IMG/VR virus record: IMGVR_UViG_2540341028_000013
Source of the DNA: a virus
Taxonomy: Duplodnaviria > Heunggongvirae > Uroviricota > Caudoviricetes
Length of the DNA: 33,437 nt
Strand: one strand, 5' to 3'
Numbering within the stretch: position 1 is the first letter of the stretch; every line of letters starts with the position of its first letter. A model generated the notes under the pieces. That model did no database searches. It saw only the letters and a program-made list of their open reading frames with translations, and was not told where the DNA came from. A program made the translations under genes and the position numbers. Shown here one piece after another: positions 2,133 through 21,970 of this stretch.

Positions 2133-2333
2133 GTGACTCCGGCGGGTAAAAACGGAGCCGACGAAGCCACTTACGTTTATCTGAACGGCACGCGACTGCT
2201 TGTGGAACTTCCGTACCAGACCGTACAAGAAATCATTAGCGAAGCTGAAAAGGCACGCCAGGTTAATGGCGATGAACCCTATATCGAAATTATTTGTATG
2301 GATTCAGAAGCTGAAATACAGAAAGCAGATTAA
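2133..2333 (+). CDS. Hypothetical small protein; GTG start immediately after the IS629 end
   Basis: 66-aa ORF from track; no recognisable family; may be the distal part of a gene interrupted by IS629. Confidence 0.25.
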   Translation: MTPAGKNGADEATYVYLNGTRLLVELPYQTVQEIISEAEKARQVNGDEPYIEIICMDSEAEIQKAD

Positions 2334-2341
2334 AGGGCGTT

Positions 2342-2581
2342 GTGATGGGCAAAGAATATAAAACTCTCATTAACAAAGCACTTGAGCGTTTTTATTTTCG
2401 CTTAAGTGCATCAGGCGCTCATGCTGAACGTGCGGCCCGTGACTCATTGACCAGAGCAATCCGAAGTCTGTATGACGTGGCTTTTTACGCTGATGATCTG
2501 GATGCACTTAACGAACTTTCCGAGCTGATCTGTGCCGCAGTGGATTTGCCCCTATATTTCCAGACATCTGTTATCACTTAA
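2342..2581 (+). pseudogene. Hypothetical small ORF whose 3' end runs into the IS2 terminus
   Basis: 79-aa ORF; last 11 residues ([11 protein letters not shown]) are encoded by the IS2 terminal sequence beginning at 2541, so the native C-terminus is replaced. Confidence 0.3.
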
Positions 2582-2805: not shown

Positions 2806-2877
2806 TGAAGTGGCACACTGAATTTGGCCACCTGAACAGAGGTGATATGCTCACCTCAGAACAACACAGGTGCTCCA

Positions 2878-4046
<1,169 letters not shown>

Positions 4047-4054
4047 CCACTTCA

Positions 4055-4660
4055 AACCGCAAAAAAGCGAACGTCATGCGCCCGGTGGAGTACCAGAACG
4101 GCGAAGCATTCACTATCCGTAACGTACAGGTTATGCCTGAATCCATTCCGGCTGGCTTTAAGGCACTGGCTGACATGAGTCCGTTTGAATCCCTGCTGAT
4201 TGTGGATTTGGGCGGAACCACGCTGGATGTGGCAAAGGTTCAGGGGCAACTGGCAGGTATCAGCCAGGTGTTTTGCGATCCACACGTGGGCGTTTCTCTG
4301 ATGGCCGATGCCGTACTGTCGGTGATGGCCACTAACGGTATGCGCACCAGTCACCACATCGCCAATACCATTATCGAACATCGCCATGATGAAGCCTGGC
4401 TGCGCCAGCACATCCACAATGACGCGCATTACGCCAGCCTGATGGCGGTAATTCGTGAAAAGGAAGAAACACTGAAACAACGCGTGATCCGCGCGCTGGC
4501 GGTTTTTTCGGGTTACGGGCGGGTGATGGTTGTCGGTGGAGGGGCGGAGATTGTGGCACCCGCTATCCGCGAAGCCTGCGGAGTTAATGCGACTTTCATC
4601 GCGGACGGGGTGCCACAGTTTGCTCTGGTTAATGGGCTGTACGCAATGGACAAGGAGTAA
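4055..4660 (+). pseudogene. parM: parM/stbA 3' fragment (actin-like plasmid segregation ATPase), 5' end removed by IS911
   Basis: Translation from the IS911 boundary: TIRNVQVMPESIPAGFKALADM...LLIVDLGGTTLDVAKV...GVSLMADAV...VMVVGGGAEIV matches the C-terminal ~190 aa of plasmid R1 ParM/StbA as recalled; N-terminal ~130 aa absent. Confidence 0.8.
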
Positions 4661-4664
4661 ACCA

Positions 4665-4976
4665 ATGACGACTCCAACCAGACGGATAAGTTTCTATCTG
4701 AAGCCCACCGCCGTCAAGAACGAAGGAGAAGCATGCGCCTGGCTGGACAGCCTTACACCAGAAGCCCGCAAAAGCGGCCAACGCGTGGCTTTTCTGGCCG
4801 GGCTGGCACTTCTGAAAATGAATCCGGCAGAGGCTTATCGACTGGCTGCATGGGCTGGTGATGAAGCGTTATCAGTGACACAAACCAGGACAGAACGCCC
4901 CGCATCACAGCCAGTATCAACCGCACAGATAACCAGTCAGATGGCCGGAAATATCCGGGCGTTATTTCCTGAATAA
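4665..4976 (+). CDS. parR: ParR/StbB-like centromere-binding protein
   Basis: 103 aa from ATG 4665, RBS AAGGAG overlapping the parM stop; RRISFYLKP...LDSL...FLAGLAL...IRALFPE resembles R1 ParR (TIAFKLNP...LDSI...LTAGLAL...LRSLFPKE). Confidence 0.55.
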   Translation: MTTPTRRISFYLKPTAVKNEGEACAWLDSLTPEARKSGQRVAFLAGLALLKMNPAEAYRLAAWAGDEALSVTQTRTERPASQPVSTAQITSQMAGNIRALFPE

Positions 4977-5039
4977 CACAACATCAGGGCGAGTTCGCCC
5001 TGCTCTCCACCTCAGAACATAAACAAGGAGAACGACTTA

Positions 5040-5630
5040 ATGAGCGAAATCAACTATCAGGCATTACGTGAACGTTATTCACCTGTGCCAGTACCGAAAT
5101 GCCCTATTTGCGGCGAGGAAATGTCAATTCAGCGAATATCTGGAGCACAGGTTGTTTATGCCTGCTCCGGTTATGGTGATGATGGAGATTTCAAAATTGG
5201 CCGAACTCTTGCTGACAAACATTATGAAAAATCACGCGTAACAGTGTTGGATGTCGGGGATCCTGAAGTATTGGCGCTACTTGATTGGCTGGAAACCAAA
5301 GACAACCGAATCGCTGAACTGGAAAAAATCGCCACTGACTATGCACTTAAATTCCAGAAAGCACAGGACGCATTAAAGCATGCCGCTTTGCTGCATAGCA
5401 GGACGGCGCAACAAACAAATAATTTTGCAGTATCGCTTCCGGACATAAGCGAATATTTCATTAATGACGTATTTCAGCCCTTGCGATACGAGCGGGATGT
5501 TGAAAGAGCCATCATAAAGGCTGGCGGAAAAGCATTGTGGCAGGAGAAACACGAGGACAGAACGCATCAGTCATGCGATGTAAATTGTGGATGGTTTAGC
5601 CCACTGACGACAGATAAAAATAACACCTGA
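5040..5630 (+). CDS. Hypothetical protein with N-terminal Cys-rich zinc-ribbon-like motif and central coiled coil
   Basis: 196-aa ORF; CPICGEE...YACSGYG motif; coiled-coil segment ALLDWLETKDNRIAELEKIATDYALKFQKAQDALKH; no family recognised. Confidence 0.5.
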   Translation: MSEINYQALRERYSPVPVPKCPICGEEMSIQRISGAQVVYACSGYGDDGDFKIGRTLADKHYEKSRVTVLDVGDPEVLALLDWLETKDNRIAELEKIATDYALKFQKAQDALKHAALLHSRTAQQTNNFAVSLPDISEYFINDVFQPLRYERDVERAIIKAGGKALWQEKHEDRTHQSCDVNCGWFSPLTTDKNNT

Positions 5631-5751
5631 TCCCCCTCAAACCAGGGCGATAATCGCACATCGCCCTGCTGCACATTTGCACAATTTTTTTGAACGAATT
5701 TTTGCCCTTCCAGCCCGCGTGGCGGCTGGATCCGTCAAGGATCCGTGCGTG

Positions 5752-5775
5752 CACAAAAAAACGCGCTTTTTCTGC
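5752..5775 (-). terminator. Putative rho-independent terminator (minus strand)
   Basis: GC stem CGCGC/GCGCG with 7-nt loop; on the minus strand it is followed by a run of 7 T. Approximate coordinates. Confidence 0.3.
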
Positions 5776-6057
5776 GCGCAGGTGACGGGGGAACAGCCCG
5801 CGTTTCAGGGGGTAAATAGCGTTCCCTTAACGATGTCGCAGCGACACGACAGAATGGCCGTATTTCTCACGCTGAGCGTGAAAAATACGTGAGGGATTCT
5901 GATTTGATGGGGTGAAAGGTAAGGCCGTCAAAATCGCACTGAGGCGGCGAGAACATGCAGTCAACGCGGTGGGATTGCGTAAGAGTCTGACCGTCGATGG
6001 TGGCGATAAACTGGAAGGCGTCGTGAAATTATCTGACTGATACAGGAGCTGGAGAGT

Positions 6058-6082
6058 CGGGGCATAAATTTTTTATGCCCCG
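6058..6082. terminator. Perfect palindromic hairpin just downstream of Q (possible bidirectional terminator)
   Basis: CGGGGCATAAA-TTT-TTTATGCCCCG, 11-bp stem; lies 27 bp beyond the Q stop on the minus strand. Confidence 0.4.
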
Positions 6083-6108
6083 GCGAAGCAGCAGACAAGC
6101 GAAGCGCG

Positions 6109-7145
6109 TCAGGATGTGGGCTGGATGTCTAACAGTGCGTAAGGGTTAAAGCGGATCACCTCTTCGCCAAGCCAGTCATTGATGTGCTTCATGGCCTCCA
6201 TGACGGGCATCAGCTCGTTAATTGCGTAAACCCGCGCGGCCTTCTCCACATCACCAAACGCACTTTTTTCACCCGGCATCGCCCCCATCAGTTGCGGCGG
6301 AACGCGGTGCGCAGCCAGCACATCATCACGGGATGCCGCCTTAACATTCATGAACTCATCCTTTGCGGTGATCTGCTGGAACGGCAAAATTTGCACCCCC
6401 TCTTTGCCCCCGTTGGGCGCATGAATGAGCACGTTTTTAAACGCACCACCACCACGCGCACCCTGTAGCGTTTCTTTCAGGGAGTCCATGCTTTCGCGGT
6501 TTACCTGCGCGGCACCGATGTAGATGATGCACCCGGCGTGGGATCCGTTGTCGTAATACAGTTTTCTGAACATGTCCGCCGAATGAGACAGGCTGGCCGA
6601 GAGTAATGCGCCGAGATATTCCGGCATGCCGTAGATTTCCTGGTTAATGTCAGGATTCATCAGGTGACACACTTTGCCTGGGCGAAACTGAAACGCATCC
6701 TTGCCATCCTGCACATACCTCCATGATTCAAGATCGCTTCCGCGTCGCATGTATTTCGCCAGGGCGTGCCGTAATTTAAGCGGTTCGCCGAGCATATTGC
6801 TTCGAAGCTCAAGGAATGCGTTACCGAACACAAACCAGTCCAGCGCCAGCGCCGAGAAATCCTGCCGGGAAAGCAGCGGGTGCGGGATGTAGCAACCGAG
6901 CAATACATTGCGCTTAAAATAAAGCGCAGACTGATGCCAGGACGTTTGCCGGGCAGCTCTTGCCAGACCGTACCAGTCCACCGGGGTTTCATACCACCGC
7001 CCGTTATCAGCACAGTACATATTGTCCAGCAGGTCAGGCGATAAGGACCATCAAATGTGAATGCACTGAGCGATGATTCTTTCCTGAGCGCATCAGCGAG
7101 ATCAATGCGTGAACTCATGCGCACTTTTTTATTTTTTCTGCTCAT
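6109..7145 (-). pseudogene. Q: P2-like portal protein gpQ, frameshifted near 7045
   Basis: Start ATG overlaps the P stop (ATGA). The N-terminal frame (MSRKNKKV...AFTFDGP) then degenerates; the conserved remainder (SLSPDLLDNMYCADNGRWYETPVDWYGLARAAR...HRVPPQLMGAMPGE...) is in another frame. A single missing base in a CC/TT dinucleotide at about 7044-7048 would restore one ORF of about 345 aa. Confidence 0.8.
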
Positions 7146-8896
7146 CAGAACTCCATAACCGTGAAACGCTCGTTTTCTCCTTCGCCGCCAATCGGTTCGT
7201 TAATGACAGCAAGCATGGTTGCCCACGCAAGGTCGCCGTGGCTGATCCCCCTCGCTCGGTCCGTTTCGTAAGTGATAAAGCCGCCCGGTGTTTTCACCTT
7301 ACGCACGGCGTTAAAGGCCGCGACCAGCTCGCGTTCGGCGCGATCGTATTCCCACCGCCCGGCACGCATTATTTGCAGCATTTTCAGTACCAGCGACCGT
7401 TTTGATGACAGCGTGAAGGTGTACGGAATAGCGGCAGGGAAAAACCGTTTCACTATCTGATAAACAGCCTCCCCGTTCCCGCCCGTCACATCAATGCCGA
7501 TGTGTTCCACGTTGTAGCGACACGTGAACTCTTCAATGACTCTGGCCTGTTCTTCAAACTCCAGCCCCTGAACGCGTCGCGTCTCCACCGTTCGAAAACG
7601 GCCACCAGGAACAGACGGAGGAACCACCACGGACACAGCGCCGCTGTCGCCGTTGCCACTGCTGCCGTTTGCGTCATACCCAATCCATACCGGACGATTC
7701 CCCATCGGGCGGGGAGCAAAAGGTTTCCAGTCTTTCCAGTCGTCGTATCCGTCAACGCCGCAGCCAATCAGGATATTCAGGTTAAATGCCGATTCCCCTT
7801 CGCGGACAAACTCACACATATAGAGATTGAGGAACTCGTCTTCGGTGTTTTCATCACGAATTTCGTCGATATCGGTGTGTTTCCAGCCGTGATTAACCAC
7901 ATCTTCCAGCGTGACAATTTGCCGCCACGTCCGGTCAGGGCAGATAAGCCCGTTATGCAGCGTTTTCCAGTCCACAGAAAAACGCTGGCGTTTATGCGAG
8001 GCCTTTTTCTCGTTCCAGCGGTCGCCGTTCCAGTAGGCGTATGCCTCGTGCGTTTCGGTGGATGGCGTGGAGAAGTAGGTGCGCCGCAGTCCGCTGAGGG
8101 TTGCCATAGCGCCAGCCACCTTGCGCAGTTCAGCAAAGCGACTGACCCAGAAAAATTCATCAAAATAAAAATTGCCCGTATAGGACTGTGCCGACGCAGC
8201 AGAAGTGCCGAGAAAATGCAGCTCTGCGCCGTTGGAGAGGATGATTTTATCGCCCCCTTTCAGCTCCACATCAACTTCAGCCGCGGCCTTCTGAATAATG
8301 CTTTTAAACTGGAACGCCTGACGACGCGACGCAGACAAAAAAATCTGGTTACGCTGGTAAGGTTGCGCCACATCGTCACGCAGCGCCATCAGCAGTGCTT
8401 CCTGTGCAAAATACCAGGTCGCCCCAATCTGTCGGGATTTCAGGATCATCCTGTTACGTATCCCGGCTTCCCTGCAAAGGGTCAGGGAGTCAAACCAGCC
8501 CCGCTGATGCCACTCCAGCCTGCTGATGATTTTTTCCCGCAGTGCGGCAATCTGTTCCGGCGTGAAATGATTTTTGAGTTTTTTCGCCCGGCCTTTCTTT
8601 CCTGCGGCCATCACATCCGGCTGGCCATCATGCAGCTTTTTAAGCTGCCGGGTCAGCAGGTCTATTTCCTTAAAGTCACCGCCTGTTTTATTCTGTTTTT
8701 CAGTAAGCTGGATGAGGCGCGCATCGATGGACTGCGTGACACGCTGCCCGGGTGGCGTTTCATCCCACTGGTCACGTTTTTTCCACGCATAAATCGTGTT
8801 CGGGTTTATTCCCATCAGACGTGATATTTCTGCGGGCGGATAACCCTGCCAGTAAAGTTGCCGCGCACGCTGGCGCACAAAAGCGTCCTGAATCAT
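7145..8896 (-). CDS. P: P2-like terminase large (ATPase) subunit gpP
   Basis: Intact 583-aa ORF (P2 gpP is about 590 aa); position immediately upstream of Q on the same strand as in P2. Confidence 0.9.
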   Translation of the reverse strand: MIQDAFVRQRARQLYWQGYPPAEISRLMGINPNTIYAWKKRDQWDETPPGQRVTQSIDARLIQLTEKQNKTGGDFKEIDLLTRQLKKLHDGQPDVMAAGKKGRAKKLKNHFTPEQIAALREKIISRLEWHQRGWFDSLTLCREAGIRNRMILKSRQIGATWYFAQEALLMALRDDVAQPYQRNQIFLSASRRQAFQFKSIIQKAAAEVDVELKGGDKIILSNGAELHFLGTSAASAQSYTGNFYFDEFFWVSRFAELRKVAGAMATLSGLRRTYFSTPSTETHEAYAYWNGDRWNEKKASHKRQRFSVDWKTLHNGLICPDRTWRQIVTLEDVVNHGWKHTDIDEIRDENTEDEFLNLYMCEFVREGESAFNLNILIGCGVDGYDDWKDWKPFAPRPMGNRPVWIGYDANGSSGNGDSGAVSVVVPPSVPGGRFRTVETRRVQGLEFEEQARVIEEFTCRYNVEHIGIDVTGGNGEAVYQIVKRFFPAAIPYTFTLSSKRSLVLKMLQIMRAGRWEYDRAERELVAAFNAVRKVKTPGGFITYETDRARGISHGDLAWATMLAVINEPIGGEGENERFTVMEF

Positions 8897-9050
8897 TGCT
8901 CCCCCTGAGTAATTACAGGAAGATTACCCGCGCGCGAAACTGTTCTCCTTAACCCTCTGTTCTGGCCGTTTTCTTACAACAAAAGCCCTTTGTATCAGCC
9001 TGTTACGCTTTGCCATCATGACTGAAGAACCAGTCAGAGGGGCAAAAACT
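8897..9050. promoter_or_regulatory. Divergent late-promoter region between P (leftward) and O (rightward)
   Basis: By synteny with P2, where Ogr-dependent promoters P_P and P_O diverge here; individual promoter elements not confidently mapped. Confidence 0.3.
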
Positions 9051-9887
9051 ATGGCTAATGAAAAAAAGACATCCCGCAAAAAGTTTCGCGTGGCTGTCTC
9101 CGGATCAACTGTTGATGGCCGTGAAATCAGTCCGGTGCATCTGCGTGAAGCCGCCGAGAACTTCAACCCGGATGTTTACGCTGCCCGCGTGAACGTTGAG
9201 CACTATCTCTCGCCATGCCCGTCAAGCGAATTTTCCGCAATGGGCGATGTCACCGCACTGAGTACGGAAGACATTACGGAAGGTCCGCTGGCCGGACGTA
9301 CTGCGCTGTATGCAGAAATCGAACCGACCGAGCGCATGAAGCAGCTTGTTGCGGACGGCAAGAAAATCTATTCCAGTATCGAACTGCACCCGCAGTTCTC
9401 CGTTAACGGGCGCGCCTATCTGGTCGGGCTGGCGATGACCGACACCCCGGCAAGCCTGGGCACTGAGCGCCTGAAATTCACGGCACAGCAACGTCAGGCG
9501 GTGATGACGTTTAACAGTATCCAGGGTGAAGCGCCGCTTATCTCCGAAGCCATCGAGTCTGAAATCATCGAAATGGCAGAACAACGCCAGGAAGAAGGCA
9601 CCCAGTGGTTTAACCGCGTAATGGGGATTATTGGCCGTGGCCGCAAAGCGGATGACGCCAGTTTTTCCCGTATTCAGGAAGCGGTGGAAGGCGTCGCAAC
9701 GTCACAGGCCGACATTATCGACCGTTTTAATGTGCTGGAAACCCGCCATCAGCAGGACCGCCAGAAAATTACGTCACTGACCACAGAGCTGGCAGCACTG
9801 AAGGAAAAACTGCGCACGCAGGACGGCGATCCGCAGAACCGCTTCACCGCAACGGGCGCAGCCTCCGACCAGCTGGCCGACTTCTGA
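9051..9887 (+). CDS. O: P2-like capsid scaffolding protein gpO
   Basis: 278 aa from ATG 9051 (RBS AGAGGGG); KFRVAVSGSTVDGREISP...YLVGLAMTDTPASLGTE resembles P2 gpO (FRIGVEGDTCDGRVIS...YLVGLAVTDDPASLGTE). Confidence 0.85.
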   Translation: MANEKKTSRKKFRVAVSGSTVDGREISPVHLREAAENFNPDVYAARVNVEHYLSPCPSSEFSAMGDVTALSTEDITEGPLAGRTALYAEIEPTERMKQLVADGKKIYSSIELHPQFSVNGRAYLVGLAMTDTPASLGTERLKFTAQQRQAVMTFNSIQGEAPLISEAIESEIIEMAEQRQEEGTQWFNRVMGIIGRGRKADDASFSRIQEAVEGVATSQADIIDRFNVLETRHQQDRQKITSLTTELAALKEKLRTQDGDPQNRFTATGAASDQLADF

Positions 9888-9910
9888 TTAGACAAAGGAG
9901 CAAATTTTTT

Positions 9911-10962
9911 ATGAATCTGGTGATGTCAGATATTACCCGCAACAAGCTGGGTTGCTATATGGCGCAGCAGGTGTCGCTTAATAATATCCCGGTATCTGCA
10001 CTGGTGTCGCGATTTACCGTGGAACCCGCGGTGCAGCAGCGTTTTGAAAACGCCTCAAAGGAAAGTACCGAATTTACGAAAAAAATAACGTGATCGGCGT
10101 GACCGACCAGAAAGGCGAAAAAATCCTCCTGGATACCACAGGACCGATTGCGCGCACGAATACCAGTTATGACGGCACAAAACGCCGTAACCCGAATAAC
10201 GTGGTTGATCTGAAAAACCGCAAATATCAGTGTGAACAGGTGAACTACGACACGTTTATTTCGTATCCGCAGCTTGATGCCTGGTCGGCACACCCTGATT
10301 TTCAGTCCCGCATCAGCGCACAGATTGCCCGACAGGTGGCGCTTGACCGCATCATGATCGGTTTCAACGGCACGTCTCACGCGGATGAGTCCAACTTCAG
10401 CACCAACAAGCTGCTTCAGGACGTTAACGTGGGCTGGCTGGAGCACATCAGAACCGACGCCAGCGAACGCGTTATGAATGACGTGACGCTGACCTCCCGC
10501 AACATGGACAACACCGTGGCGCACGCGGGTAAGTATGCGAACGCTGATGCACTGGTACAGGACGCGCGTTCATCCCTGCTAGATGAATGGCACAAGGAAG
10601 CTGACGACCTCGTGGTGATTATGGGGCGCAACCTGTTTAACTCGCTGCGTCTGCCCGTGCTGAACAGCATCAGCGGCCAGAATCCCAATGCGGAATTACT
10701 CGCCGGGCAGCTCATCCTGTCATCGCGCACCATTGGCGGGCTGGGCGTGTTCCTTGCGCCGTTCTTCCCGGATGCAACGATGCTGATCACCTCGTTCAAC
10801 AACCTGTCGATTTACTGGCAGAAAGGTTCAATGCGTCGCCTGATGAAAGACGAGCCGGAATACAACCGCATCGCCACCTACCAGTCCATCAATGACGCTT
10901 ATGTCGTTGAAGACTATGGCAAGTGCGCGATGGTTACTGGCCTGAAGTTCGCCGACAGCTAA
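9911..10962 (+). pseudogene. N: P2-like major capsid protein gpN, frameshifted at about 10087
   Basis: N-terminal 60 codons (…FTVEPAVQQRF…TEFTKKIT*) and the remaining 290 codons (…IGVTDQKGEKI…YVVEDYG…) are in different frames; restoring one A in ATAACG at about 10086-10090 gives TKKINVIGVTDQKGEKI, colinear with P2 gpN (TRINIVPVSEMKGEKI). Confidence 0.8.
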
Positions 10963-10971
10963 TCAACTCAC

Positions 10972-10990
10972 GGCGGGCATCATGCCCGCC
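10972..10990 (+). other. GC-rich hairpin between N and M
   Basis: GGCGGGC-ATCAT-GCCCGCC palindrome directly after the N stop; no T tract follows, so more likely an attenuator or RNA-stability element than a full terminator. Confidence 0.3.
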
Positions 10991-11007
10991 TGTAACGGAG
11001 AGCAAAA

Positions 11008-11754
11008 ATGATTACTCCTGCACAACAACACTGGCAGAACGTGATGGCACAGCGCGCAGGCCGGGCGAATGAAGGCGTGGACCACGCCGCGCGTACCGCG
11101 CATGAAGAGGTGCTGTATCGTCTGCGTCTGGCACAGGCCCGGCTTAAGGGCGTACAGGCCAGAAGCGCGAAAGCCGCCATCAAAAAAGAGTTGTTGCCGG
11201 ATTTTTCCGGCTGGATTGAGGGAACGCTGGAGGCTGACGGCGGGCAGCAGGATGAAGTGATTGCCACGCTGATGGTGTGGGCGATTGACTGTGGCGATCT
11301 TCCGCTTGCGCTGCGTATCGGCGCGTATGTAGTCCGTCACAACCTCATCATGCCGGATAACTTTGGCCGTACTGCTGCCACGGTACTGACCGAAGAAATC
11401 TGTAATCCGGTACTGACGCAGGCCGGGACGGATGCCGACGCGGATTTGTCCGCCTTTATCGAACCACTGGACACCCTCCGGGAGATTGTCACCGACCAGG
11501 ACATGCCGGACGAAGTGCGCGCCAAATTATGCAAAGCGTGCGCCTTTGCCCGCCGTGGCCTGAGTGATGCGGACAGCATGGCCCTGTCACTGAAGCTGCT
11601 GCGCGAAGCAATGCACCTGAACCCGAACGCAGGTGTGAAACGCGAGATTGCAACCCTTTCCCGCGCCCTGAAAAAAGCCGATTCCGCAGCCGAACCAGAA
11701 GACGCCAGCGCACAGCAGGCGCAGGACGAAAGCAGCAAAAAGCAGCAAAAGTAA
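11008..11754 (+). CDS. M: P2-like terminase small subunit gpM
   Basis: 248 aa; ...MPDEVRAKLCKACAFARRG... matches P2 gpM (...MPDEVRAKLHKITG...); RBS GGAGAG upstream. Confidence 0.85.
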   Translation: MITPAQQHWQNVMAQRAGRANEGVDHAARTAHEEVLYRLRLAQARLKGVQARSAKAAIKKELLPDFSGWIEGTLEADGGQQDEVIATLMVWAIDCGDLPLALRIGAYVVRHNLIMPDNFGRTAATVLTEEICNPVLTQAGTDADADLSAFIEPLDTLREIVTDQDMPDEVRAKLCKACAFARRGLSDADSMALSLKLLREAMHLNPNAGVKREIATLSRALKKADSAAEPEDASAQQAQDESSKKQQK

Positions 11755-11921
11755 AAAGACAACGCGGAAGCCTGCAACACGAAAAACCACCGCGACGCAG
11801 AAGGCGAAGCGCGGTTAACGACTGACCCCGTCAGCGGGCGGCGTGCGCGGTGTTCCAGTTTGACTCCGTGACCGTTTACACCGCGCACCCACCGCCCGAT
11901 TTTTTTTCAGGAGTGAACCCC

Positions 11922-12416
11922 ATGACTATAGTTGCCAGAACTGAACCCGGACCCGCAGAGGACGACATCACCGATACCGATGATGGCGATACCCGCATTT
12001 CAGCGGGTGCATTCTGGCCGGATATTGTGCTGCGCGAGCTGCGTCTGGCGGTACGACTGCCGGGGCGCGTGACCACCTCCCGCCTGCTGCATACTGCCAC
12101 CGGGGCTGTGGCACACGTTACCCGCGAGCTGGAAGCATGGCAGCAGGAACAGCAGGCAGCTGGCCATCAGACGCTGGCCGATGTTCCGGCACCCGTAATT
12201 AACGGAGAAAGCGTCAATCTCTGGCACTGGCGCAATGCTGTTTATACCGCCACGCGCGCCCTGATTCTGGAGCGTTATCGTGATGCAGACACTACGGACA
12301 AGGGCGACCGCCGGGCAGACGCTCTGGATATACAGACATCGGATTTGTGGCGTGATGTGAGCTGGGCCATCTCTGACATTCTGTGCCGCCCGCGAATCTT
12401 TGCGGAGTTGTGCTGA
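11922..12416 (+). CDS. L: P2-like head completion/stabilisation protein gpL
   Basis: 164 aa from ATG 11922 (RBS CAGGAG); gene order after M; stop overlaps the X start (TGATG). Confidence 0.8.
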   Translation: MTIVARTEPGPAEDDITDTDDGDTRISAGAFWPDIVLRELRLAVRLPGRVTTSRLLHTATGAVAHVTRELEAWQQEQQAAGHQTLADVPAPVINGESVNLWHWRNAVYTATRALILERYRDADTTDKGDRRADALDIQTSDLWRDVSWAISDILCRPRIFAELC

Positions 12417-12616
12417 TGAAAGTGAAGGCACTGGAAGGCGACACCGTGGATTCGCTCTGTTTCCGGTACTACGGCACGACGCAGGGCGTCACCGAAAAGG
12501 TGCTGGATGCCAACCCCGGACTCTGTCAGCAGGTATTTCTGGACGCCGGGCAGGAAGTGGAGATGCCGGAGCCGGAGAAGAAGAAACGAGAAATGATTCA
12601 GTTGTGGGGGGAGTAG
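12416..12616 (+). CDS. X: P2-like tail protein X (LysM-like)
   Basis: 66 aa, MKVKALEGDTVDSLCFRYYGTTQGVTEKVLDANPGL resembles P2 gpX (MKTFALQGDTLDAICVRYYGRTEGVVETVLAANPGL). Confidence 0.85.
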   Translation: MKVKALEGDTVDSLCFRYYGTTQGVTEKVLDANPGLCQQVFLDAGQEVEMPEPEKKKREMIQLWGE

Positions 12617-12618
12617 CA

Positions 12619-12942
12619 GTGAGCACCATTCAAACAGGGATCACAGAGCAGGTTATTGCGTGGCTCTTTGACCACCTGCCAACGGTGTATGCAGTAGGCG
12701 CGGCGGTCAGCATTTCCGCGCTGATGAGCCTTTATGACGGACGAACACTGGTTCAGACCGTAACGGGATCGCTGGCGTGCGGCGTTCTTGCCATGGCCGT
12801 GGCCGGGTCGTTGCGCTTCTTCGGGTTTCCTGAAGATGCCGTGACGTTTATCGGCGCATCAATCGGTTTTATGGGTGCAGAGAAAGCACGCGACAAGGTT
12901 ATTGCGGCCTTTAATCGCAGGGTGAAGGAGAAGGACGAATGA
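12619..12942 (+). CDS. Putative holin
   Basis: About 107 aa from GTG 12619 (RBS GGGGGGAG); two or three hydrophobic helices; sits between X and the endolysin as P2 gpY does. Confidence 0.6.
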   Translation: MSTIQTGITEQVIAWLFDHLPTVYAVGAAVSISALMSLYDGRTLVQTVTGSLACGVLAMAVAGSLRFFGFPEDAVTFIGASIGFMGAEKARDKVIAAFNRRVKEKDE

Positions 12943-13331
12943 GCAACACATTTAAATTCAGCAGCCGGAGCGAAAAGAATTTGCAGGGTGTAAATCCTGA
13001 TCTGGTGAAAGTGACCCGACGGGCACTGGAAATCTCGGAAGTGGATTTTGGTATCACCGAAGGGTTGCGCAGCCGTTACCGCCAGAAGCAACTGGTGGCC
13101 ACGGGTAAGAGCCAGACCATGAACAGCCGCCACCTTACGGGGCATGCCGTGGATGTTGTGGCTTATATCGGCAGCCAGATGTCATGGGAATGGCCGCTGT
13201 ACGAAAAAATCGCAGCAGCATTCAGACAGGCCAGCCGGGAACTGAATATTCCGGTGGAATGGGGCGGCGACTGGAAGACCCTGAAAGACGGACCGCATTT
13301 TCAGTTACCACACGGAGCCTATCCGGCATGA
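12939..13331 (+). CDS. Endolysin, peptidase M15 family (L-alanyl-D-glutamate endopeptidase type)
   Basis: 130 aa with the conserved SRHLTGHAVDV and GGDW...GPHFQL motifs typical of zinc D-Ala-D-Ala carboxypeptidase-like phage endolysins; not the P2 K-type lysozyme. Confidence 0.8.
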   Translation: MSNTFKFSSRSEKNLQGVNPDLVKVTRRALEISEVDFGITEGLRSRYRQKQLVATGKSQTMNSRHLTGHAVDVVAYIGSQMSWEWPLYEKIAAAFRQASRELNIPVEWGGDWKTLKDGPHFQLPHGAYPA

Positions 13332-13735
13332 AGCTCTGGCCCACGCTTGGCGTCGCTTTCCTTCTGACTGCCGGATGGGGAACATCCATGCGTCTGTCGT
13401 GGTCGCTGGGCCGGGAGAACGCCAGAAACGAAGCGCAGGCCAGCACCCTGAAAAGTACCGCCGACACCCTGAATATCATCAGCGCCGGGGTACAGGATAT
13501 GCAGCAGGTGCTGGCGCAACTCCGCGTGGAAAATCAGCAACGCAATCAGGACGGAGAGGTAAGACGTGAACAGCTACGCAACGATATTGCAAAAGATGAA
13601 TGCGCCCACGCTTTGCCTGACGCTCGTTTTACTGACAGGCTGCGCAGGCACGCAGAACGCGCCACTGCCAGCGCCGTCAGTCCGGCTTATACCGCAGACG
13701 CTGACCATACCGGTAACGCCTCCCCCCTTCCCTGA
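13328..13735 (+). CDS. i-spanin (Rz/LysB-like)
   Basis: ATG 13328; N-terminal membrane anchor (LWPTLGVAFLLTAGWG) then charged coiled-coil region; an o-spanin ORF is embedded and overlapping. Confidence 0.65.
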   Translation: MKLWPTLGVAFLLTAGWGTSMRLSWSLGRENARNEAQASTLKSTADTLNIISAGVQDMQQVLAQLRVENQQRNQDGEVRREQLRNDIAKDECAHALPDARFTDRLRRHAERATASAVSPAYTADADHTGNASPLP

Positions 13736-13886
13736 CACTCCCACATGGGGAAATCTCGGTATATGGGGCGACCGCCTTCTGGATGCACTGGAAACCTGTA
13801 ACGCGGATAAACGGGCCATTGAATTACTGGAACAGCGCAGGCTGCAACGACTGAACAACGAGGATAACAACCATGCTGAAAACTGA
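13566..13886 (+). CDS. o-spanin (Rz1/LysC-like outer-membrane lipoprotein)
   Basis: Lipobox LLTGC after a hydrophobic signal; proline-rich mature part (PLPAPSVRLIPQTLTIPVTPPPFPDTP); starts inside the i-spanin gene in another frame. Alternative start at 13596. Confidence 0.65.
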   Translation: MNSYATILQKMNAPTLCLTLVLLTGCAGTQNAPLPAPSVRLIPQTLTIPVTPPPFPDTPTWGNLGIWGDRLLDALETCNADKRAIELLEQRRLQRLNNEDNNHAEN

Positions 13887-14341
13887 TTCCCTGCGTGAAG
13901 CCATGACCCGTTCATGCCGATGGTGTCAGGCTAACCCGGAAAAATTCACCATTTTCGTGGAGAGCGGCAACATTGAAACGACCGGGAGAAACCCCATCGT
14001 TTGTTTACCGCTATCAGATGGTGATGTTTGTCATGGATTACGCCGGGGAGCTGGACGACCTCACGCTGCCGCTGCTGGCGTGGTTATCCGAAAATCAGCC
14101 ACAGTTGTTGCTCAACCCTGAGCGTAATCAGGACATCAAATTTTCCGCCGTTATCAATGACGATGACAGCGCCGATCTCCTGTTTACGCTCCCCCTGCGG
14201 GAACGCGTTCGCATCACGCGCAGCAGTCAGGGCACACCGCAGGCAGAACACCTGCTGGAGCCAAAACCCCGCCTGCCATCTTCCGAAGGCGACTGGTCGC
14301 ATGTATTCCAGGATGTGACGTGGGGTGAAAGCGATGGATAA
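13873..14341 (+). pseudogene. R: P2-like tail completion protein gpR, frameshifted at about 13990
   Basis: N-terminus MLKTDSLREAMT...IFVESGNIETTGRNP (frame A) and the remainder SFVYRYQMVMFVMDYAGELDDLTLPLLAWLSENQP... (frame B) both align to P2 gpR (MLKPDSLRRALT...IFVDNGSIA...SFEKRYTLNVIVTDFTGDFDLLIVPVLAWLRENQP); junction at a CCCC run. Confidence 0.75.
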
Positions 14342-14969
14342 GGCATTCACTCGCGTGGATGAAACCTTTGAGGCCATCCGCGACAGCCTGAATCAGCAGG
14401 CCATCAATAACATCGCCAGAAAGCTGGCACAGGATTTACGCCGCGCCCAGCAGGCACGTATCCGGCCACAGAAAGCGCCGGACGGGACCGCATGGACACC
14501 ACGCAGACGCCACGTAACCCGGATACAGGAGCGCATTCGCTTTATCTGGAATAACGAAGCACGCACGCTGAAAAACTGGCATCACGACACGGGGAAATAC
14601 GGGCGAACCATCACCGGGTGGGATGAGGATAAAAACAGCATCCGCACGTTTTACCGGGATGACATCGACCGCTTTCTGGAAATACGCACCCGGCGCATCA
14701 ACCAGGACAGCACAAAGCGCGTCCCCATGTTCGTAAAACTGCGCACCGCCCGCTACCTGAAAGCCCGTGCAGATGCTTCCGGTGTGACGGTGGGTTACAG
14801 CGGCGTGGCCGCACGTATTGCACGCGTTCATCAGTTCGGTGAGCGCGATCAGGTTGCGCCGGGCATTTTCACCGATTACCCGGTACGTGAGCTGCTGGGT
14901 ATCAGCCAGGCAGATGAGCGCCTGATTTATAACACGGTGCTGGGCCGGATTGCGGAGGCTGTACGGTGA
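14334..14969 (+). CDS. S: Tail completion / virion morphogenesis protein at the gpS position
   Basis: 211 aa from ATG 14334, overlapping the R stop; assigned by position between R and V; longer than P2 gpS (about 150 aa). Confidence 0.6.
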   Translation: MDKAFTRVDETFEAIRDSLNQQAINNIARKLAQDLRRAQQARIRPQKAPDGTAWTPRRRHVTRIQERIRFIWNNEARTLKNWHHDTGKYGRTITGWDEDKNSIRTFYRDDIDRFLEIRTRRINQDSTKRVPMFVKLRTARYLKARADASGVTVGYSGVAARIARVHQFGERDQVAPGIFTDYPVRELLGISQADERLIYNTVLGRIAEAVR

Positions 14970-15547
14970 GCGCAGAACTCATGCGGCTACTGAGCAATAT
15001 CATCCGCACCGGGATCATCTCTGAAGTTGATGAGAAGTCCTGGCGCGTGCGCGTTCGCAGCGGCGAACTGGAAACAGGTTGGCTGCGCTGGAACACCTCT
15101 CGCGCGGGAGCCTTCAATGTGTGGCTGCCGCCATCACCAGGCGAACAGGTGGTAATTGCCTGCATTGGCGGCAACCCGGAAACCGCCATGATAATTGGCA
15201 GCCTGTGGAGTGATGCCATTCCGGCCCCCGGCAAAAGCCTGAAAGAAATCGTGGTCAGCGCGCCGGATGGCGCGGTGTTCCGCTACGACGCGGACGCAGG
15301 CGCACTGAGCGCCAGCGGCATGAAAACAGCCACCCTGCAGGCATCCGTCAGCGTGACACTGGATACGCCCGTCGTGGAATGCACAGACCTTCTGAGAACG
15401 GCGACGCTTGACGTCACAAAAGGGGGAAAGATGAGCGGCAATATCACGCACAGCGGCGGCAATTTCACCTCAAACGGCATCACAGTGCATACGCATAAAC
15501 ACGGTGGCGTTAAAGGTGGCAGCGATTCGACAGGAGGCCCGCAGTGA
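14966..15547 (+). CDS. V: P2-like baseplate spike protein gpV
   Basis: GTG start overlapping the S stop; C-terminal ...VTKGGKMSGNITHSGGNFTSNGITVHTHKHGG... matches the P2 gpV motif (...VQKGGTMRGNIEHTGGELSSNGKVLHTHKHPG...). Confidence 0.85.
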   Translation: MSAELMRLLSNIIRTGIISEVDEKSWRVRVRSGELETGWLRWNTSRAGAFNVWLPPSPGEQVVIACIGGNPETAMIIGSLWSDAIPAPGKSLKEIVVSAPDGAVFRYDADAGALSASGMKTATLQASVSVTLDTPVVECTDLLRTATLDVTKGGKMSGNITHSGGNFTSNGITVHTHKHGGVKGGSDSTGGPQ

Positions 15548-15894
15548 CAACCCGCTACACAGGAATGAACCCGGACGGAACGGGAAACCTGAACGATATG
15601 GAGCACCTGAAACAGTCAGTCAGGGACATCCTGACCACCCCGCTGGCAAGCCGGGTTATGCGACGGGAATATGGCAGCCTTGTGCCTGATTTGATTGACG
15701 AACCCATGAATAACACCACGCGTCTGCAATGCATGAGTGCTGCCGTGATTGCGCTGACACGATGGGAACCCCGCATTGCCCTGGACGCTATCGACGTTGT
15801 CTGGAAGGCAGGAGGCCGCGCCGGGGTGACGCTGTCGGGCACTGTCATGCAGACCATGCAGAATGTTGAATTAACCATCACGCTGAGGGAGTAA
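15544..15894 (+). CDS. W: P2-like baseplate wedge protein gpW
   Basis: 116 aa; size and position as P2 gpW (115 aa); GTG start overlapping the V stop. Confidence 0.8.
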   Translation: MTTRYTGMNPDGTGNLNDMEHLKQSVRDILTTPLASRVMRREYGSLVPDLIDEPMNNTTRLQCMSAAVIALTRWEPRIALDAIDVVWKAGGRAGVTLSGTVMQTMQNVELTITLRE

Positions 15895-15897
15895 ATC

Positions 15898-16794
15898 ATG
15901 CCTGCCGTTGACCTTTCACAGTTACCGGAACCCGCCATCATCGCGGAGCCTGACTTTGAGGCAATTCTGGCTGACACAAAGGCCATGATGATTGCGTCCT
16001 ATCCCGCCGAACAGCGTGAAGCCGTTTCCGCCGCGCTGGAGCTGGAATCGGAACCCCTTAACGTTATCGCTCAAACCATGTCGTTTCGTGAAATGCTGTT
16101 ACGCCAGCGGGTCAATGAGGGTGCACGCGCCTGCATGCTAAGCCACAGCGCCGGGACAGACCTGGACAACCTCGCGGGCAATATGAACACAAAGCGCCTG
16201 GTTATCACTCCGGCAACGGATACCACCGATGCAGTGATGGAAAGTGACACCTCGCTGAGACTACGGGCGCAACGGGCATATGACGGTCTGAGTGTTGCTG
16301 GCCCGTCAGGTGCATACGAGTATTTTGCACGCAGCGCCAGCGGTCTGGTACGCGATGCGCGGGCCATCAGCCCGTCTCCGGCCAACGTGACGGTTTCCAT
16401 CCTGTCCACTGAGGGCGACGGCACAGCAACGGAGGCGTTGCTTAATACCGTTCGCGCCGTTCTGAATGCAGAGGATACCCGCCCGGTGGCCGACCGCCTG
16501 ACCGTACAGAGTGCCAGAATCGTGACATGGCGGCTGAATGCAAAACTGTACTTTTACCCCGGCCCGGAATCCGAACCTATTCTGGCCGCGGCTGAATCGT
16601 CGTTCAGGAAGTGGCTGGCTGAGCAGGGGCTTATCGGTCAGGACGTGGCGTTGTCCGCCATTGCTGCCGCACTGCATGTGCACGGTGTGCAACGCGTGGA
16701 GATAATCGAACCCACACAGAATATGGCCATCAGCGACATACAGGCGGCGCGCTGTGCGTCATTCACCATCAGCGAAGGTGGACGCAATGAGTAA
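15898..16794 (+). CDS. J: P2-like baseplate protein gpJ
   Basis: 298 aa (P2 gpJ about 302 aa); position after W. Confidence 0.8.
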   Translation: MPAVDLSQLPEPAIIAEPDFEAILADTKAMMIASYPAEQREAVSAALELESEPLNVIAQTMSFREMLLRQRVNEGARACMLSHSAGTDLDNLAGNMNTKRLVITPATDTTDAVMESDTSLRLRAQRAYDGLSVAGPSGAYEYFARSASGLVRDARAISPSPANVTVSILSTEGDGTATEALLNTVRAVLNAEDTRPVADRLTVQSARIVTWRLNAKLYFYPGPESEPILAAAESSFRKWLAEQGLIGQDVALSAIAAALHVHGVQRVEIIEPTQNMAISDIQAARCASFTISEGGRNE

Positions 16795-17317
16795 TTCGTT
16801 GTTACCACCATCAGCCAGCAATTTCATGCGTTGTGCCGAAGCCGTCGGAACACGCATTACAGACATTCCGGTAGACCTCAACACGCTGTGGTCGCCGGAC
16901 ACCTGCCCGGTGCATCTGCTGCCTTATCTCGCCTGGGCGTTTTCCGTTGACCGCTGGGATCGCAACTGGCCGGAAGAGACAAAGCGACAGGTTATTCGTG
17001 ATGCATGGCTGATACACCGACACAAAGGGACCATCAGCGCACTGCGCCGGGCCATTGAGCCGCTGGGATACCTCATTCGCGTGTCTGAGTGGTGGGAGTT
17101 CGGCGGAGAACCGGGAACATTTACCGTTGAAGTCGGCACGCTGGACAGTGGCGTGACGGAGGAAATGTATCTGGAAATGGAGCGGTTGATTGCTGATGCC
17201 CGCCCGGTCAGCCGCCACATGACAGGGCTGAATATCATTCAGGAAATTCCGGGGGATATTTTCGCAGCGGCGGCAACTTATGACGGTGAAGTTATTACCA
17301 TTTATCCAGGCGATTAA
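16787..17317 (+). CDS. I: P2-like baseplate protein gpI
   Basis: 176 aa from ATG 16787 (P2 gpI 176 aa); overlaps the J stop. Confidence 0.8.
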   Translation: MSNSLLPPSASNFMRCAEAVGTRITDIPVDLNTLWSPDTCPVHLLPYLAWAFSVDRWDRNWPEETKRQVIRDAWLIHRHKGTISALRRAIEPLGYLIRVSEWWEFGGEPGTFTVEVGTLDSGVTEEMYLEMERLIADARPVSRHMTGLNIIQEIPGDIFAAAATYDGEVITIYPGD

Positions 17318-17319
17318 GC

Positions 17320-19305: not shown

Positions 19306-19307
19306 CG

Positions 19308-19841
19308 ATGATGCACTTAAAAAACATTACTGCTGGCAACCCTAAAACAAAAGAGCAATACCAGCTAACAAAGCAATTTAACATCAAATGGCTTTATTCA
19401 GATGATGGGAAAAACTGGTATGAGGAACAAAAGAATTTCCAGCCAGACACTTTGAAAATGGTCTATTACCATAACGGCGTTATTATTTGTATTGAAAAGG
19501 ATGTTTCAGCAATTAATCCGGAAGGCGCAAGCGTCGTTGAATTACCTGATATTACAGCAAATCGCCGGGCTGATATTTCGGGGAAATGGTTGTTCAAAGA
19601 TGGCGTAGTGATAAAGCGAACTTATACCGAGGAAGAGCAGAGGCAACAAGCGGAAAATGAAAAGCAAAGCCTGTTGCAACTTGTCAGGGATAAAACCCAG
19701 CTATGGGACTCACAGCTACGGCTGGGCATCATTTCCGACGAGAATAAACAAAAATTAACCGAGTGGATGCTCTATGCGCAGAAAGTCGAATCTACAGACA
19801 CCTCCAGCCTGCCAGTAACGTTTCCCGAACAACCAGAATGA
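19308..19841 (+). CDS. G: Tail fibre assembly protein (gpG/Tfa), currently expressed orientation
   Basis: 177 aa starting 2 bp after the H stop; N-terminus [22 protein letters not shown] paralogous to the inverted copy. Confidence 0.8.
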   Translation: MMHLKNITAGNPKTKEQYQLTKQFNIKWLYSDDGKNWYEEQKNFQPDTLKMVYYHNGVIICIEKDVSAINPEGASVVELPDITANRRADISGKWLFKDGVVIKRTYTEEEQRQQAENEKQSLLQLVRDKTQLWDSQLRLGIISDENKQKLTEWMLYAQKVESTDTSSLPVTFPEQPE

Positions 19842-19869
19842 GAGAAGGCCCGATATTGGGCCTTAATTT

Positions 19870-20398
19870 TTACTCAGGCTTTTGTGGCCATTCGGGATTT
19901 GCTGTATCCACACGGCTGACCAGAACGCTGTAGCGTTCCCATGACTCCAGTCGTGTGCGTTCCTCATCCATCGCCATATTCAGCCTGACAGCGCGTTCCA
20001 GTGGCTGAATAACGCTTTCAGCTTCAGAAAGCAACGCGACCTTTTGTGATTCGGCCTGTTGTTGCTGTTCGTCTGCTGTATAAATCCGCTTAACCACAGT
20101 TCCGTCCTTAAACATCCACTTCCCTGAATCATCGGCACGACGATTGGCTGTTATATCTGGAATCTCAACGACACTAAAGCCTTCGGGATTAAGCGTTGGG
20201 GCATCTTTGGTTATGGCAACAATAATATTATTTTCGTCGTATACAATCTTTATGGTGTCGTCCTGAAAGTTATTTACTTCCTCATACCAGTTTTTACCGT
20301 CTTCGGACCATAACCAGATAACATCAAAATTCTTTGTTAGCTGATATTGTTCTTTTGTTTTTGGATTTCCGGACTTAATATTTTTTAATATGCTGCAT
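19870..20398 (-). pseudogene. Alternative tail fibre assembly protein (tfa'), frameshifted in codon 6-7
   Basis: ATG at 20398 follows the H' stop by 3 nt, but MQHIKKY* hits a stop; the conserved body ([20 protein letters not shown]...) is in the adjacent frame. Junction is a 6-T run at 20381-20386. Confidence 0.65.
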
Positions 20399-20401
20399 AA
20401 T

Positions 20402-21262
20402 TTACACCTGTGCGACGTTATACCATGTGCCATTGATGTATTTTTGTATTGGTCTGAAGATGGCTTCATCATCGCCATCTACTTCACCAATGATTCTTAA
20501 TCCGGTAATTGCGTGTCCGGCTTTTTCATAACGACCACCACGCGCCATCAATTGAACAACACGCGTACCCAGGCGAACATCTTTTACATAGCGTGAATCA
20601 AAATTCCCCCAGTTGCTGGGCTGTATCTGACCGTTAACAGAAAATATTACCGAGTTATCTGTATTTCGCTGGCTATAGAAATGCCATCCTGCCTCATTGC
20701 CTAACTCTGCAACTACTGGACGGGTTGAAGCACCCCATAAATTAAACGTTGCATTCTTTGTGGAGTTGTTGGAGCTGGATAGCGTGAATTTTTTACCATC
20801 CCCGGCCTGAATATTTTTAAAAGCAATAGCCACTCCATTCTGAAAGCGGAATACACGCTGACTATTAGCATAAACATCCAGAATACCGTCTCCATTCTGT
20901 TTAAATCCGGTGTCATTATCACCAAGAACAATAGAGCTACCACCTAACGCATTCGTCGAACCAACTCCAAGACTGCCATTAATGACAGCATTAACAAGAA
21001 TATTTAGTGCATCCCATTTCAGCGTCATCAGGTCTTTTGTTGTGGTGCTCTGGCGGCTTCTCCATTTGAAATATTCATTGCCGTTGTCGCCTGTTTCAAA
21101 CCACATGTATGAATCAGTGTCACCATCGGCATCATTTTTAAATCCAATCTTCGCCCAGTCAGTATTTCGAATCCAGGCAAGGATTGAGTCATTTTCAAAA
21201 GTAAGCCCACCGGACAAGGTATCGCCATTTTTTTGCACGGCGTTACCAGCCCTGTTTACCGT
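20402..21262 (-). CDS. Alternative tail-fibre C-terminal cassette (H'), silent in this orientation
   Basis: Frame open from the right gix site through ...[24 protein letters not shown]... to ...[18 protein letters not shown]; no start codon of its own upstream (TAA just left of the site); would fuse to H after inversion. Confidence 0.7.
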
Positions 21263-21288: not shown

Positions 21289-21342
21289 TGGCCGTTTCTG
21301 GCCTGCATGGCATGATTTGCGCTTTTGGACGGGAGATTCAGT

Positions 21343-21965: not shown

Positions 21966-21970
21966 TTAAA

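Follow-up and report, generated by a model that had tools for sequence, protein, structure and literature searches.

A truncated parM–parR pair in a decayed P88-like prophage and its intact relatives in P2-type phages

The parM–parR pair at positions 4055-4976 of the 33,437-nucleotide viral DNA analysed here (the window) is very probably a remnant of the ParM–ParR cassette that P88-like temperate phages carry in the hotspot between genes A and Q (gpA–gpQ). The element around it is a heavily decayed P88-like prophage (Xuanwuvirus, P2 family) that is disrupted by multiple insertion sequences (IS) and integrated in the chromosome, in the ihfA terminator between btuC and ihfA. The module in the window is dead and its copy is unable to function, because the phosphate-1 ATP-binding motif, most of the ParM N-terminal domain and the region upstream of the gene are gone; parR survives as an unchanged orphan open reading frame (ORF). 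The cassette is an ordinary, catalogued element, phage-borne StbA and Plasmid_stab_B being already known. The window copy is a further example of a gene eroded by IS in a defective prophage of the Shigella type, and its analysis corrects the idea that the prophage might be plasmid-borne. The use of ParMR to integrating P2-like phages is a real question, which this broken copy does not advance.

The truncated parM and the intact parR

The parM fragment (4055-4660, + strand) is a pseudogene consisting of codons 119-319 and the stop codon of the gene for the actin-like ATPase ParM, as delimited by Pfam matches and by alignment with intact genes. Its translation covers the whole profile of the ParM C-terminal domain (PF21523, positions 1-159 of 159, E 2.3e-69) but only the last 39 positions matched in that of the N-terminal domain (PF06406, profile positions 119-157 of 158). 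The first base of the fragment corresponds to nucleotide 355 of the 957-nt intact gene (an offset of 354 nt); compared with the intact relatives, codons 1-118 are missing and 201 of 319 residues (63%) are kept. The DDGST phosphate-1 motif lies within the missing codons and is absent from the window. A complete actin-fold ATPase, with both domains and the phosphate-1, phosphate-2 and adenosine motifs, is thus not encoded by the window copy. It is encoded in the intact relatives, where both Pfam domains are full length and the full-length ParM aligns end to end with ParM of plasmid R1 (PDB 1mwk, E 1.2e-92). A preliminary description, made from the sequence alone, had read 4055-4976 as the C-terminal two-thirds of a ParM followed by an intact ParR-like gene, together a plasmid-type partition module that is now inactive. 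These coordinates are exact, Pfam and PHROG matches bear out both genes, the full PF21523 match and the alignment of the relative with R1 ParM identify the ATPase fragment as truly ParM, and the loss of DDGST with most of the N-terminal domain agrees with inactivity.

The downstream gene parR (stbB; 4665-4976, + strand) begins 4 nt past the parM stop, where type II ParMRC systems have their adaptor. It is intact, and its 103 codons specify a ribbon-helix-helix adaptor that matches PF10784 (Plasmid_stab_B, ParR/StbB; E 3.1e-23) and the PHROG family 2515 'partition protein' (E 1.7e-57); a comparison of ParR with solved structures gave no match. Its sequence is the same as in the intact prophages IHE3034 and P884B11. 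The parM fragment shares 99.8% identity with their intact genes, and it differs from its nearest intact relative at 2 nt, both changes being non-synonymous. These few differences, together with the unchanged ParR protein, point to a recent truncation, and because the truncation is recent the intact parR ORF is uninformative on selection.

The host prophage

Comparison by blastn with phage P88 (NC_026014; Peduoviridae, Xuanwuvirus) identifies the window as a P88-like prophage. Positions 2169-2540 correspond to P88 2516-2887 (gp05-gp06, 92.7% identity), positions 4055-5002 to P88 9210-10157 (parM from codon 119, and parR), positions 5670-18604 and 21251-28817 to the P88 late region, and positions 32285-32518 to the ogr region. 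The parM fragment is contiguous with P88-like phage DNA (97-99.8% identity). The order of genes in the window agrees with that of P88 from parM codon 119 onward, over Q, P and the late genes; the A side is deleted. Identity over 4055-5040 is 99.8% in the closest relatives, namely P884B11, IHE3034 and many E. coli chromosomes.

The left end of the prophage (84-822, - strand), recognised by its match to E. coli SE11, holds a hypothetical gene (209-649) and the start of a second gene that is cut by an IS. Positions 1-822 are 100% identical to the SE11 chromosome, at the left end of a P88-like prophage that adjoins btuC, and in SE11 the same two left-end genes are followed by int, C and cox of that prophage. 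An early-region remnant (2133-2540, + strand), assigned by its P88 match and by Pfam, comprises part of gp05 and the DUF4754 gene gp06 (E 1.8e-41) with its 3' end cut. To the right of parR stands an ead/Ea22-like gene (5040-5630, + strand; PF13935, E 3.6e-32), another gene of the hotspot, which is found with parMR in the closest relatives and has the same order in IHE3034 and P884B11. The portal gene Q (6109-7145, - strand) forms the right border of the hotspot and is frameshifted, being split into two overlapping ORFs (6109-7020 and 6660-7145) compared with one gene of 348 codons in P88. It is followed by gene P for the terminase large subunit (7145-8896, - strand), a 583-aa ORF 99% identical to P88-like terminases. 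Besides parM, the genes broken in the prophage are Q, the capsid gene, the tail tube gene, D and ogr, and the prophage is defective. As the preliminary description had noted, int, C, cox and A cannot be recognised in the window, where blastn and tblastn found no homologues of them; nor does the window contain rep, oriT or tra genes. One neighbouring gene is named from S. boydii, and a record of S. boydii 600657 shares the IS911 junction of the window; both mark the host as Shigella-like.

Insertion sequences and the origin of the truncation

An IS3-family element of 1310 bp (823-2132, + strand), recognised by its ORFs (877-1203 and 1200-2090) and its flanks, stands in place of int, C, cox and the DUF4761 gene. 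DNA matching this element is annotated 'IS3 family transposase', and from its OrfA we take it to be IS629-like; its flanks map to non-adjacent positions of the prophage. The DUF4754 gene is interrupted by a 265-bp terminal fragment of IS2 (2541-2805, - strand), and the end of the IS2 copy at 32521-32785 matches this fragment at 99.6% identity. Next to it lies a complete IS911 of 1249 bp (2806-4054, + strand), with inverted repeats reading TGAAGTGG... from 2806 and ...CCACTTCA up to 4054, orfA at 2842-3180 and orfB at 3207-4046. The names IS911 and IS2 are those given in RefSeq to matching DNA, which for IS911 reads 'IS3-like element IS911 family transposase'.

The loss of the parM 5' end had been ascribed in the preliminary description to the insertion of IS911. 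The gene is indeed cut at the IS911 end, since the right inverted repeat stops at 4054 and phage homology starts at 4055, i.e. at codon 119. However, a deletion of about 6.3 kb adjacent to the element fits better than a simple insertion, because the left flank of IS911 is the IS2 fragment and no target-site duplication is present, the 3-bp flanks GTT and AAC being different. By blastn, P88 coordinates 2888-9209 are missing from the window. Judging from the junctions only, IS911 would have inserted at parM codon 118/119, after which a deletion beside its left end (~6.3 kb, P88 2888-9209) would have reached the nearby IS2 and fused IS911 to the IS2 fragment. Such a deletion would have taken gp07 to the replication gene A, the A–parM intergenic region and parM codons 1-118, and a second IS would have removed int, C and cox. 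The absence of int, C, cox and A here is the result of IS-associated deletions and not of the design of the phage.

Chromosomal context

The window opens with chromosomal btuC–ihfA intergenic DNA (1-83), which extends up to the attL junction in the ihfA terminator hairpin. This DNA is 100% identical to E. coli K-12 MG1655 directly upstream of btuC, and the identity stops at 83. Sister chromosomes (4.66-4.73 Mb) are 99.98-100% identical over their part of window positions 23070-33437, and on their right side IS2 and hok/gef are followed by ihfA, pheT and pheS. Furthermore, a 91-kb sister contig with the same truncated parM allele carries btuD-btuE-btuC, the two left-end genes and a 45-aa integrase remnant, as well as IS elements, the truncated parM, parR, ead, Q and P. 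The btuC–ihfA left flank, the ihfA–pheT–pheS order in the sister chromosomes and the btuC-bearing sister contig place the prophage in the chromosome. Integrase and attachment sites, which the preliminary description had proposed to look for, are represented by the attL junction at window position 83 and by the 45-aa remnant in the sister contig, the window itself having no int.

That the prophage or the parMR fragment is plasmid-borne, or that the fragment is what remains of an unrelated plasmid integrated beside the prophage, is extremely improbable. ParM and ParR are classic plasmid genes, and seven PLSDB 'plasmid' records hold this DNA, among them one of Shigella boydii 600657 with the same IS911 junction. 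However, the records inspected are a linear 26.7-kb contig, Mb-sized or chimeric records with chromosomal genes, and an excised phage circle, and both this inspection and the btuC/ihfA flanks led us to reject a plasmid context. The fragment is moreover contiguous with phage DNA and occupies the same place in 14 phage genomes, plasmid ParMs are no more than 52% identical, and rep, oriT and tra genes are lacking in the window. The autonomous low-copy replicon that carries type II ParMRC systems is not found here, and the suggestion that the prophage sits on a plasmid, made in the preliminary description, is refuted by the chromosomal flanks.

Among the deposited 'plasmids' is a circle of 34,461 bp that is a complete P88-like genome and still has int. 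This circle was considered as evidence of episomal maintenance and rejected, as a P2-like circle without parMR (pENTAS02) is likewise deposited; given the retained int and the pENTAS02 record, circular 'plasmid' entries of this kind are no sign of plasmid maintenance. The hok/gef gene was considered as a co-selected second stability module and also rejected, since it is present in the parMR-less SE11 prophage too.

The parMR cassette in the gpA–gpQ hotspot

In P88, P884B11 and the IHE3034 prophage the gene order is int, C, cox, ..., A, parM, parR, ..., Q, P, so that parMR lies between A and Q on a collinear P2-type backbone. The arrangement A-parM-parR-...-Q recurs in P88, P884B11 and 12 other phage records (14 in total). 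The gpA–gpQ interval is a hotspot that holds old/tin in P2 and is dominated by anti-phage systems (Rousset et al. 2022, PMC9122126), in agreement with the earlier placement of the module at the tin/old position of P2. About one quarter of P2-like phages carry StbA with Plasmid_stab_B, the arrangements being given in tables of the same study, and a one-sentence remark there is the only functional statement that we found in the literature on ParMR of P88 or Xuanwuvirus (Rousset et al. 2022, PMC9122126).

Of 5426 complete E. coli genomes, 1285 contain the parMR DNA. An actin-type segregation pair is thus found in ~24% of them, in integrating phages, with a role that has so far been guessed; 1424 of the 1426 places are chromosomal and 2 are on plasmids. 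The cassette is exchangeable: the SE11 prophage occupies the same integration site, and its portal protein has the same accession as that of IHE3034, but three unrelated genes stand where parMR would be. Sibling prophages therefore carry alternative gene sets at the hotspot, which marks parMR as hotspot cargo. Of the origins considered in the preliminary description, descent from a phage-plasmid that partitions instead of integrating is not supported, as P88, P884B11 and IHE3034 have int, C, cox and A together with parMR. Capture as cargo is the sole one of its three proposals that fits, in the form of an old and widespread hotspot cargo, plasmid ParMs being at most 52% identical. A ParM search of genome contigs returned three loci only, all very close. 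In IMG/VR, the relatives among the 80 best loci are all at least 99% identical, and they include no distant phage-borne ParMR for a comparison of centromeres.

Relation to known partition systems

The closest characterised counterpart is the ParMRC system of plasmids R1 and NR1 (parA/stbAB). Phage ParM is 46-52% identical to its ParM over the whole length, and the DDGST, E147-equivalent, DLGGTT and GGGA motifs of R1 ParM are conserved in the intact phage protein. Phage ParR, whose gene starts 4 nt after parM, likewise belongs to the short ribbon-helix-helix proteins, and its N-terminal domain can be aligned with R1-type ParR. However, it is shorter than R1 ParR, lacking the segment between the ribbon-helix-helix domain and the tail, and it ends in a motif NI(R/Q)xLFPE (NIxxLFPE) that is kept in both phage allele classes, is unlike the R1 tail and is similar to the C-terminus of an IncF ParR (NNIKNLFPDDE). 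The phage cassette also resides on an integrating phage instead of a plasmid, and it has neither tandem 10-11-bp iterons nor a consensus promoter upstream; the window copy differs further in its truncated ParM and deleted upstream region. Among PLSDB ParMs, 6 records are at least 95% identical, followed by a gap, with more than 4990 plasmids at no more than 52%. The records at or above 95% that were inspected are all prophage DNA in mislabelled or chimeric entries. This identity gap indicates that the phage ParMs form an old and distinct clade and not a recent capture.

With StbA and Plasmid_stab_B of P88, P884B11, PhiSM and SopE-phage-like prophages, the window genes share 93-99.8% DNA identity, position and orientation, and the ead/Ea22 neighbour is as in P884B11 and IHE3034; the window differs in having lost parM codons 1-118, gene A and the intergenic region, and in belonging to a defective prophage. 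In the P1-like phage-plasmid D6, too, the phage encodes a ParM, 47.5% identical, with a small ParR-like gene behind it. However, the D6 prophage is a plasmid of 91 kb outside the chromosome and depends on partition, whereas P88-like phages integrate, and the non-coding DNA upstream measures about 260 bp in D6 compared to 76 bp in P88-like phages. An extrachromosomal prophage with plasmid replication functions, as in phage-plasmids of the P1, D6 or N15 kind, is not what is seen here, and no plasmid replicon genes were found.

In combining an actin-like ATPase with a DNA-binding adaptor in an integrating prophage, the intact relatives may be likened to AlpAC of the Corynebacterium glutamicum prophage CGP3. 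AlpC is only distantly related to ParM. The AlpC/AlpA/alpS system acts on excised, replicating phage DNA, and AlpAC is needed for efficient replication of the phage DNA (PMC4446434). The old and tin genes of P2 share with parMR the slot between A and Q/cos and the character of exchangeable accessory cargo, but they are exclusion genes and unrelated in sequence. ParM and ParR gave no match to defence-system models in PADLOC.

Selection and candidate ParR sites in intact phages

Among 11 intact loci the dN/dS of parM is 0.01-0.10, and parM in intact phages is under strong purifying selection. In a set of 89 loci, defined as those still carrying the conserved parM start sequence, the 319-codon parM is open in all 89, and its diversity is 0.005 at codon positions 1+2 compared to 0.066 at 4-fold sites. 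ParR falls into two allele classes, with 59 and 20 of the 89 loci, which are separated by a dS of ~1 in the DNA-binding domain. The beta-strand TRRISFYLKP is identical across both classes, and the diverged ParR alleles stand beside nearly identical parM.

The parM start lies 76 bp from the A stop, on the same strand. A crude consensus search, which a weak or activated promoter could escape, found no sigma-70 promoter upstream of parM, and no + strand terminator was found between A and parM. According to the preliminary description, any upstream parC centromere had been lost with the parM 5' end. The region upstream is gone from the window, but the tandem ~10-11-bp iterons around a promoter that typify parC are also lacking in the intact relatives tested. 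Tandem Repeats Finder (TRF) and repeat finding detected no iteron array in the part of the IHE3034 locus that starts 850 bp ahead of parM and ends at Q, and TRF detected none anywhere in the 35.8-kb P88 genome; as a control, TRF detected the 11-bp arrays of an R1-like system.

The only repeat upstream, and with it the only repeated sequence that could act as centromere or operator, is a 38-nt unit present twice at a distance of 73 bp; each copy contains a 20-bp palindrome ACGGGAYT-N4-AATCCCGT. The first palindrome falls within the last part of gene A, and the second immediately precedes the ribosome-binding site of parM. The whole P88 genome (35.8 kb) contains the motif at these two sites only, with 0.12 expected by chance, and the window contains none. 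The two palindromes are weak candidates for ParR sites. They may not serve as such, because their arms show no extra conservation (diversity 0.058 vs 0.066 at 4-fold sites), their sequence does not covary with the ParR allele class in the 89-locus set, and on the minus strand they score as terminator-like hairpins. To our knowledge, every characterised parC has far more boxes than these two, which, with no iteron array in P88, makes it hard to see how a ParR–DNA complex would cap a ParM filament.

Possible functions in intact phages

For the intact relatives, we give roughly an even chance to a function on replicating phage DNA outside the chromosome. In this scheme parMR would be read through from the early replication operon, and ParR would bind the two palindromes at the 3' end of gene A. 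Once a cell is infected or the prophage induced, ParM-ATP filaments, caught by the ParR complexes, would move the extrachromosomal circles of replicating phage DNA apart or into position. The benefit would be a better inheritance or replication of the circles before integration or packaging. Stable lysogeny of the plasmid type is a rather unlikely variant and the least likely of the proposed benefits, because integration is near-universal, there is no plasmid replicon, and circles without parMR are deposited as well.

A related reading, suggested by Rousset et al. (2022, PMC9122126), is that the lineage descends from, or is, a low-copy P2-like phage-plasmid that uses ParMR instead of or alongside integration. 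In its favour are a bona fide type II partition pair under purifying selection, the deposited 34,461-bp circle, a hok/gef-type gene in the lineage and the use of a ParM 47.5% identical by the phage-plasmid D6. Nevertheless we consider it improbable. Every intact relative examined has int, C, cox and attachment beside host genes, and all but 2 of the 1426 copies in complete E. coli genomes lie in chromosomes; the circular record retains int, and the pENTAS02 circle is called a plasmid without having parMR. In P2, gene A belongs to the early operon repressed by C and encodes an initiator of rolling-circle replication, which also counts against a phage-plasmid, as do the hok/gef gene, present with or without parMR, and the cassette itself, for which no plasmid replicon, iteron parC or promoter of its own was detected.

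A cytoskeleton of the lytic cycle, which would position replicating phage DNA for replication or packaging and not for inheritance at division, is possible by analogy, if doubtful. P2-type phages package from monomeric circles, which ParMR could separate, and parMR lies directly downstream of A in the same orientation with no promoter or terminator detected between them. AlpAC of the Corynebacterium prophage CGP3 offers a precedent (PMC4446434, PMC5539076). However, about three quarters of P2-like phages lack ParMR and siblings with the same backbone carry other cargo, so that ParMR is not needed for the basic lytic cycle. A device for competition or defence, acting for example through incompatibility with ParMR plasmids or through phage exclusion by ParR titration or ParM filament poisoning, would suit a locus dominated by anti-phage systems (PMC9122126) and the two deeply diverged ParR alleles (dS ~1), a pattern known from specificity and immunity determinants. 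This is very unlikely, as neither ParM nor ParR matches PADLOC, the DNA-reading beta-strand of ParR is the same in both alleles, which argues against diversified specificity, and ParR has low identity to plasmid ParRs.

The handling of extrachromosomal circles by a ParMR read from the early operon is therefore the function that we favour for the intact phages. The intact relatives P88 and PhiSM are inducible and genetically tractable, making the use of a partition motor to an integrating phage directly testable, and the comparison narrows the targets to a system with no iteron array, two palindromes at the A end and probable read-through from the early operon. Tentatively, ParMR may be an early-operon phage cytoskeleton with a minimal two-palindrome centromere that would separate or place circles arising from rolling-circle replication on infection or induction, a Gram-negative counterpart of AlpAC and not a plasmid-stability cassette. 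If so, the diverged ParR alleles beside a near-invariant ParM would mark a second layer of specificity.

parR alleles in intact relatives

The ParR proteins of intact relatives (parR at 14611-14922 in locus L004 and 4630-4944 in locus L012, and also present in locus L009) fall into two deeply diverged allele classes, with a dS of about 1 and 31 non-synonymous differences over 65 codons. The ParM proteins encoded beside these two classes are nevertheless 98-99% identical, and the palindromes upstream of parM do not change between them. The combination of a diverged ParR with a near-identical ParM and unchanged palindromes points to recombination that exchanged parR by itself.

The D-ogr junction

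A further site of gene exchange may be present between gpD and the ogr-like gene, where an ORF of 1039 aa is located (29070-32189, + strand), with membrane segments at its N-terminus. The insert holding this ORF has a GC content of 31-37%, compared to about 54% for the phage. Since P88 is empty between D and ogr, where the sibling prophage of SE11 carries a different gene, this place appears to be a second site for cargo besides the hotspot containing parMR. Searches of the ORF against Pfam, PHROG and PADLOC returned no matches. In NCBI it is labelled 'MFS transporter [Shigella boydii]', a name that looks unfounded. Its homologues (1030-1070 aa, 26-71% identity) are all unannotated and are spread across the Enterobacterales, with some being plasmid-borne.

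Decay of the window prophage

Several late genes are broken in the window. The portal gene Q (6109-7145) is split into two overlapping ORFs, and the major capsid gene (9955-10962) is reduced to an ORF of 290 codons, being found as 60 + 290 aa in the sister contigs. Furthermore, the tail tube gene (26050-26370) retains 106 codons compared to about 170, gpD (27901-28821) has lost its start, and ogr (32325-32561) is interrupted by IS2. With these genes broken, the prophage cannot form particles.

IS2 is present as two copies or fragments (2541-2805 and 32521-33437) that have the terminal 265 bp in common; the former breaks a DUF4754 early gene and the latter ogr, and both generate an identical fused C-terminal peptide in the ORFs they interrupt. 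A 1310-bp IS3-family element (823-2132) also occurs in the sister contig L027 (3037-4346), where the left side retains an extra 327 bp, including a 45-aa integrase remnant, while window positions 2133-2418 are missing on the right. The differing flanks on both sides suggest that IS elements caused deletions either independently or in succession, or else that the assembly collapsed.

Other features of P88-like prophages

The tail-fibre and tail-fibre-assembly segment (18580-21292), which adjoins a DNA invertase gene, is inverted compared to P88, consistent with an invertible host-range segment. The Salmonella record pS2122_1 (NZ_CP110658.1), labelled as an IncHI2 plasmid, contains the chromosomal genes aroF, tyrA and pheA together with a complete P88-like prophage with parMR and sopE, and represents either a cointegrate of chromosome and plasmid or an assembly error. 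A hok/gef-family gene is located near the right end of P88-like prophages, adjoining attR/ihfA (34928-35068 in locus L001, 10105-10245 in L031 and 11042-11182 in L019), and is found with or without parMR in the hotspot. In the source genome, this gene would lie just past the right edge of the window.
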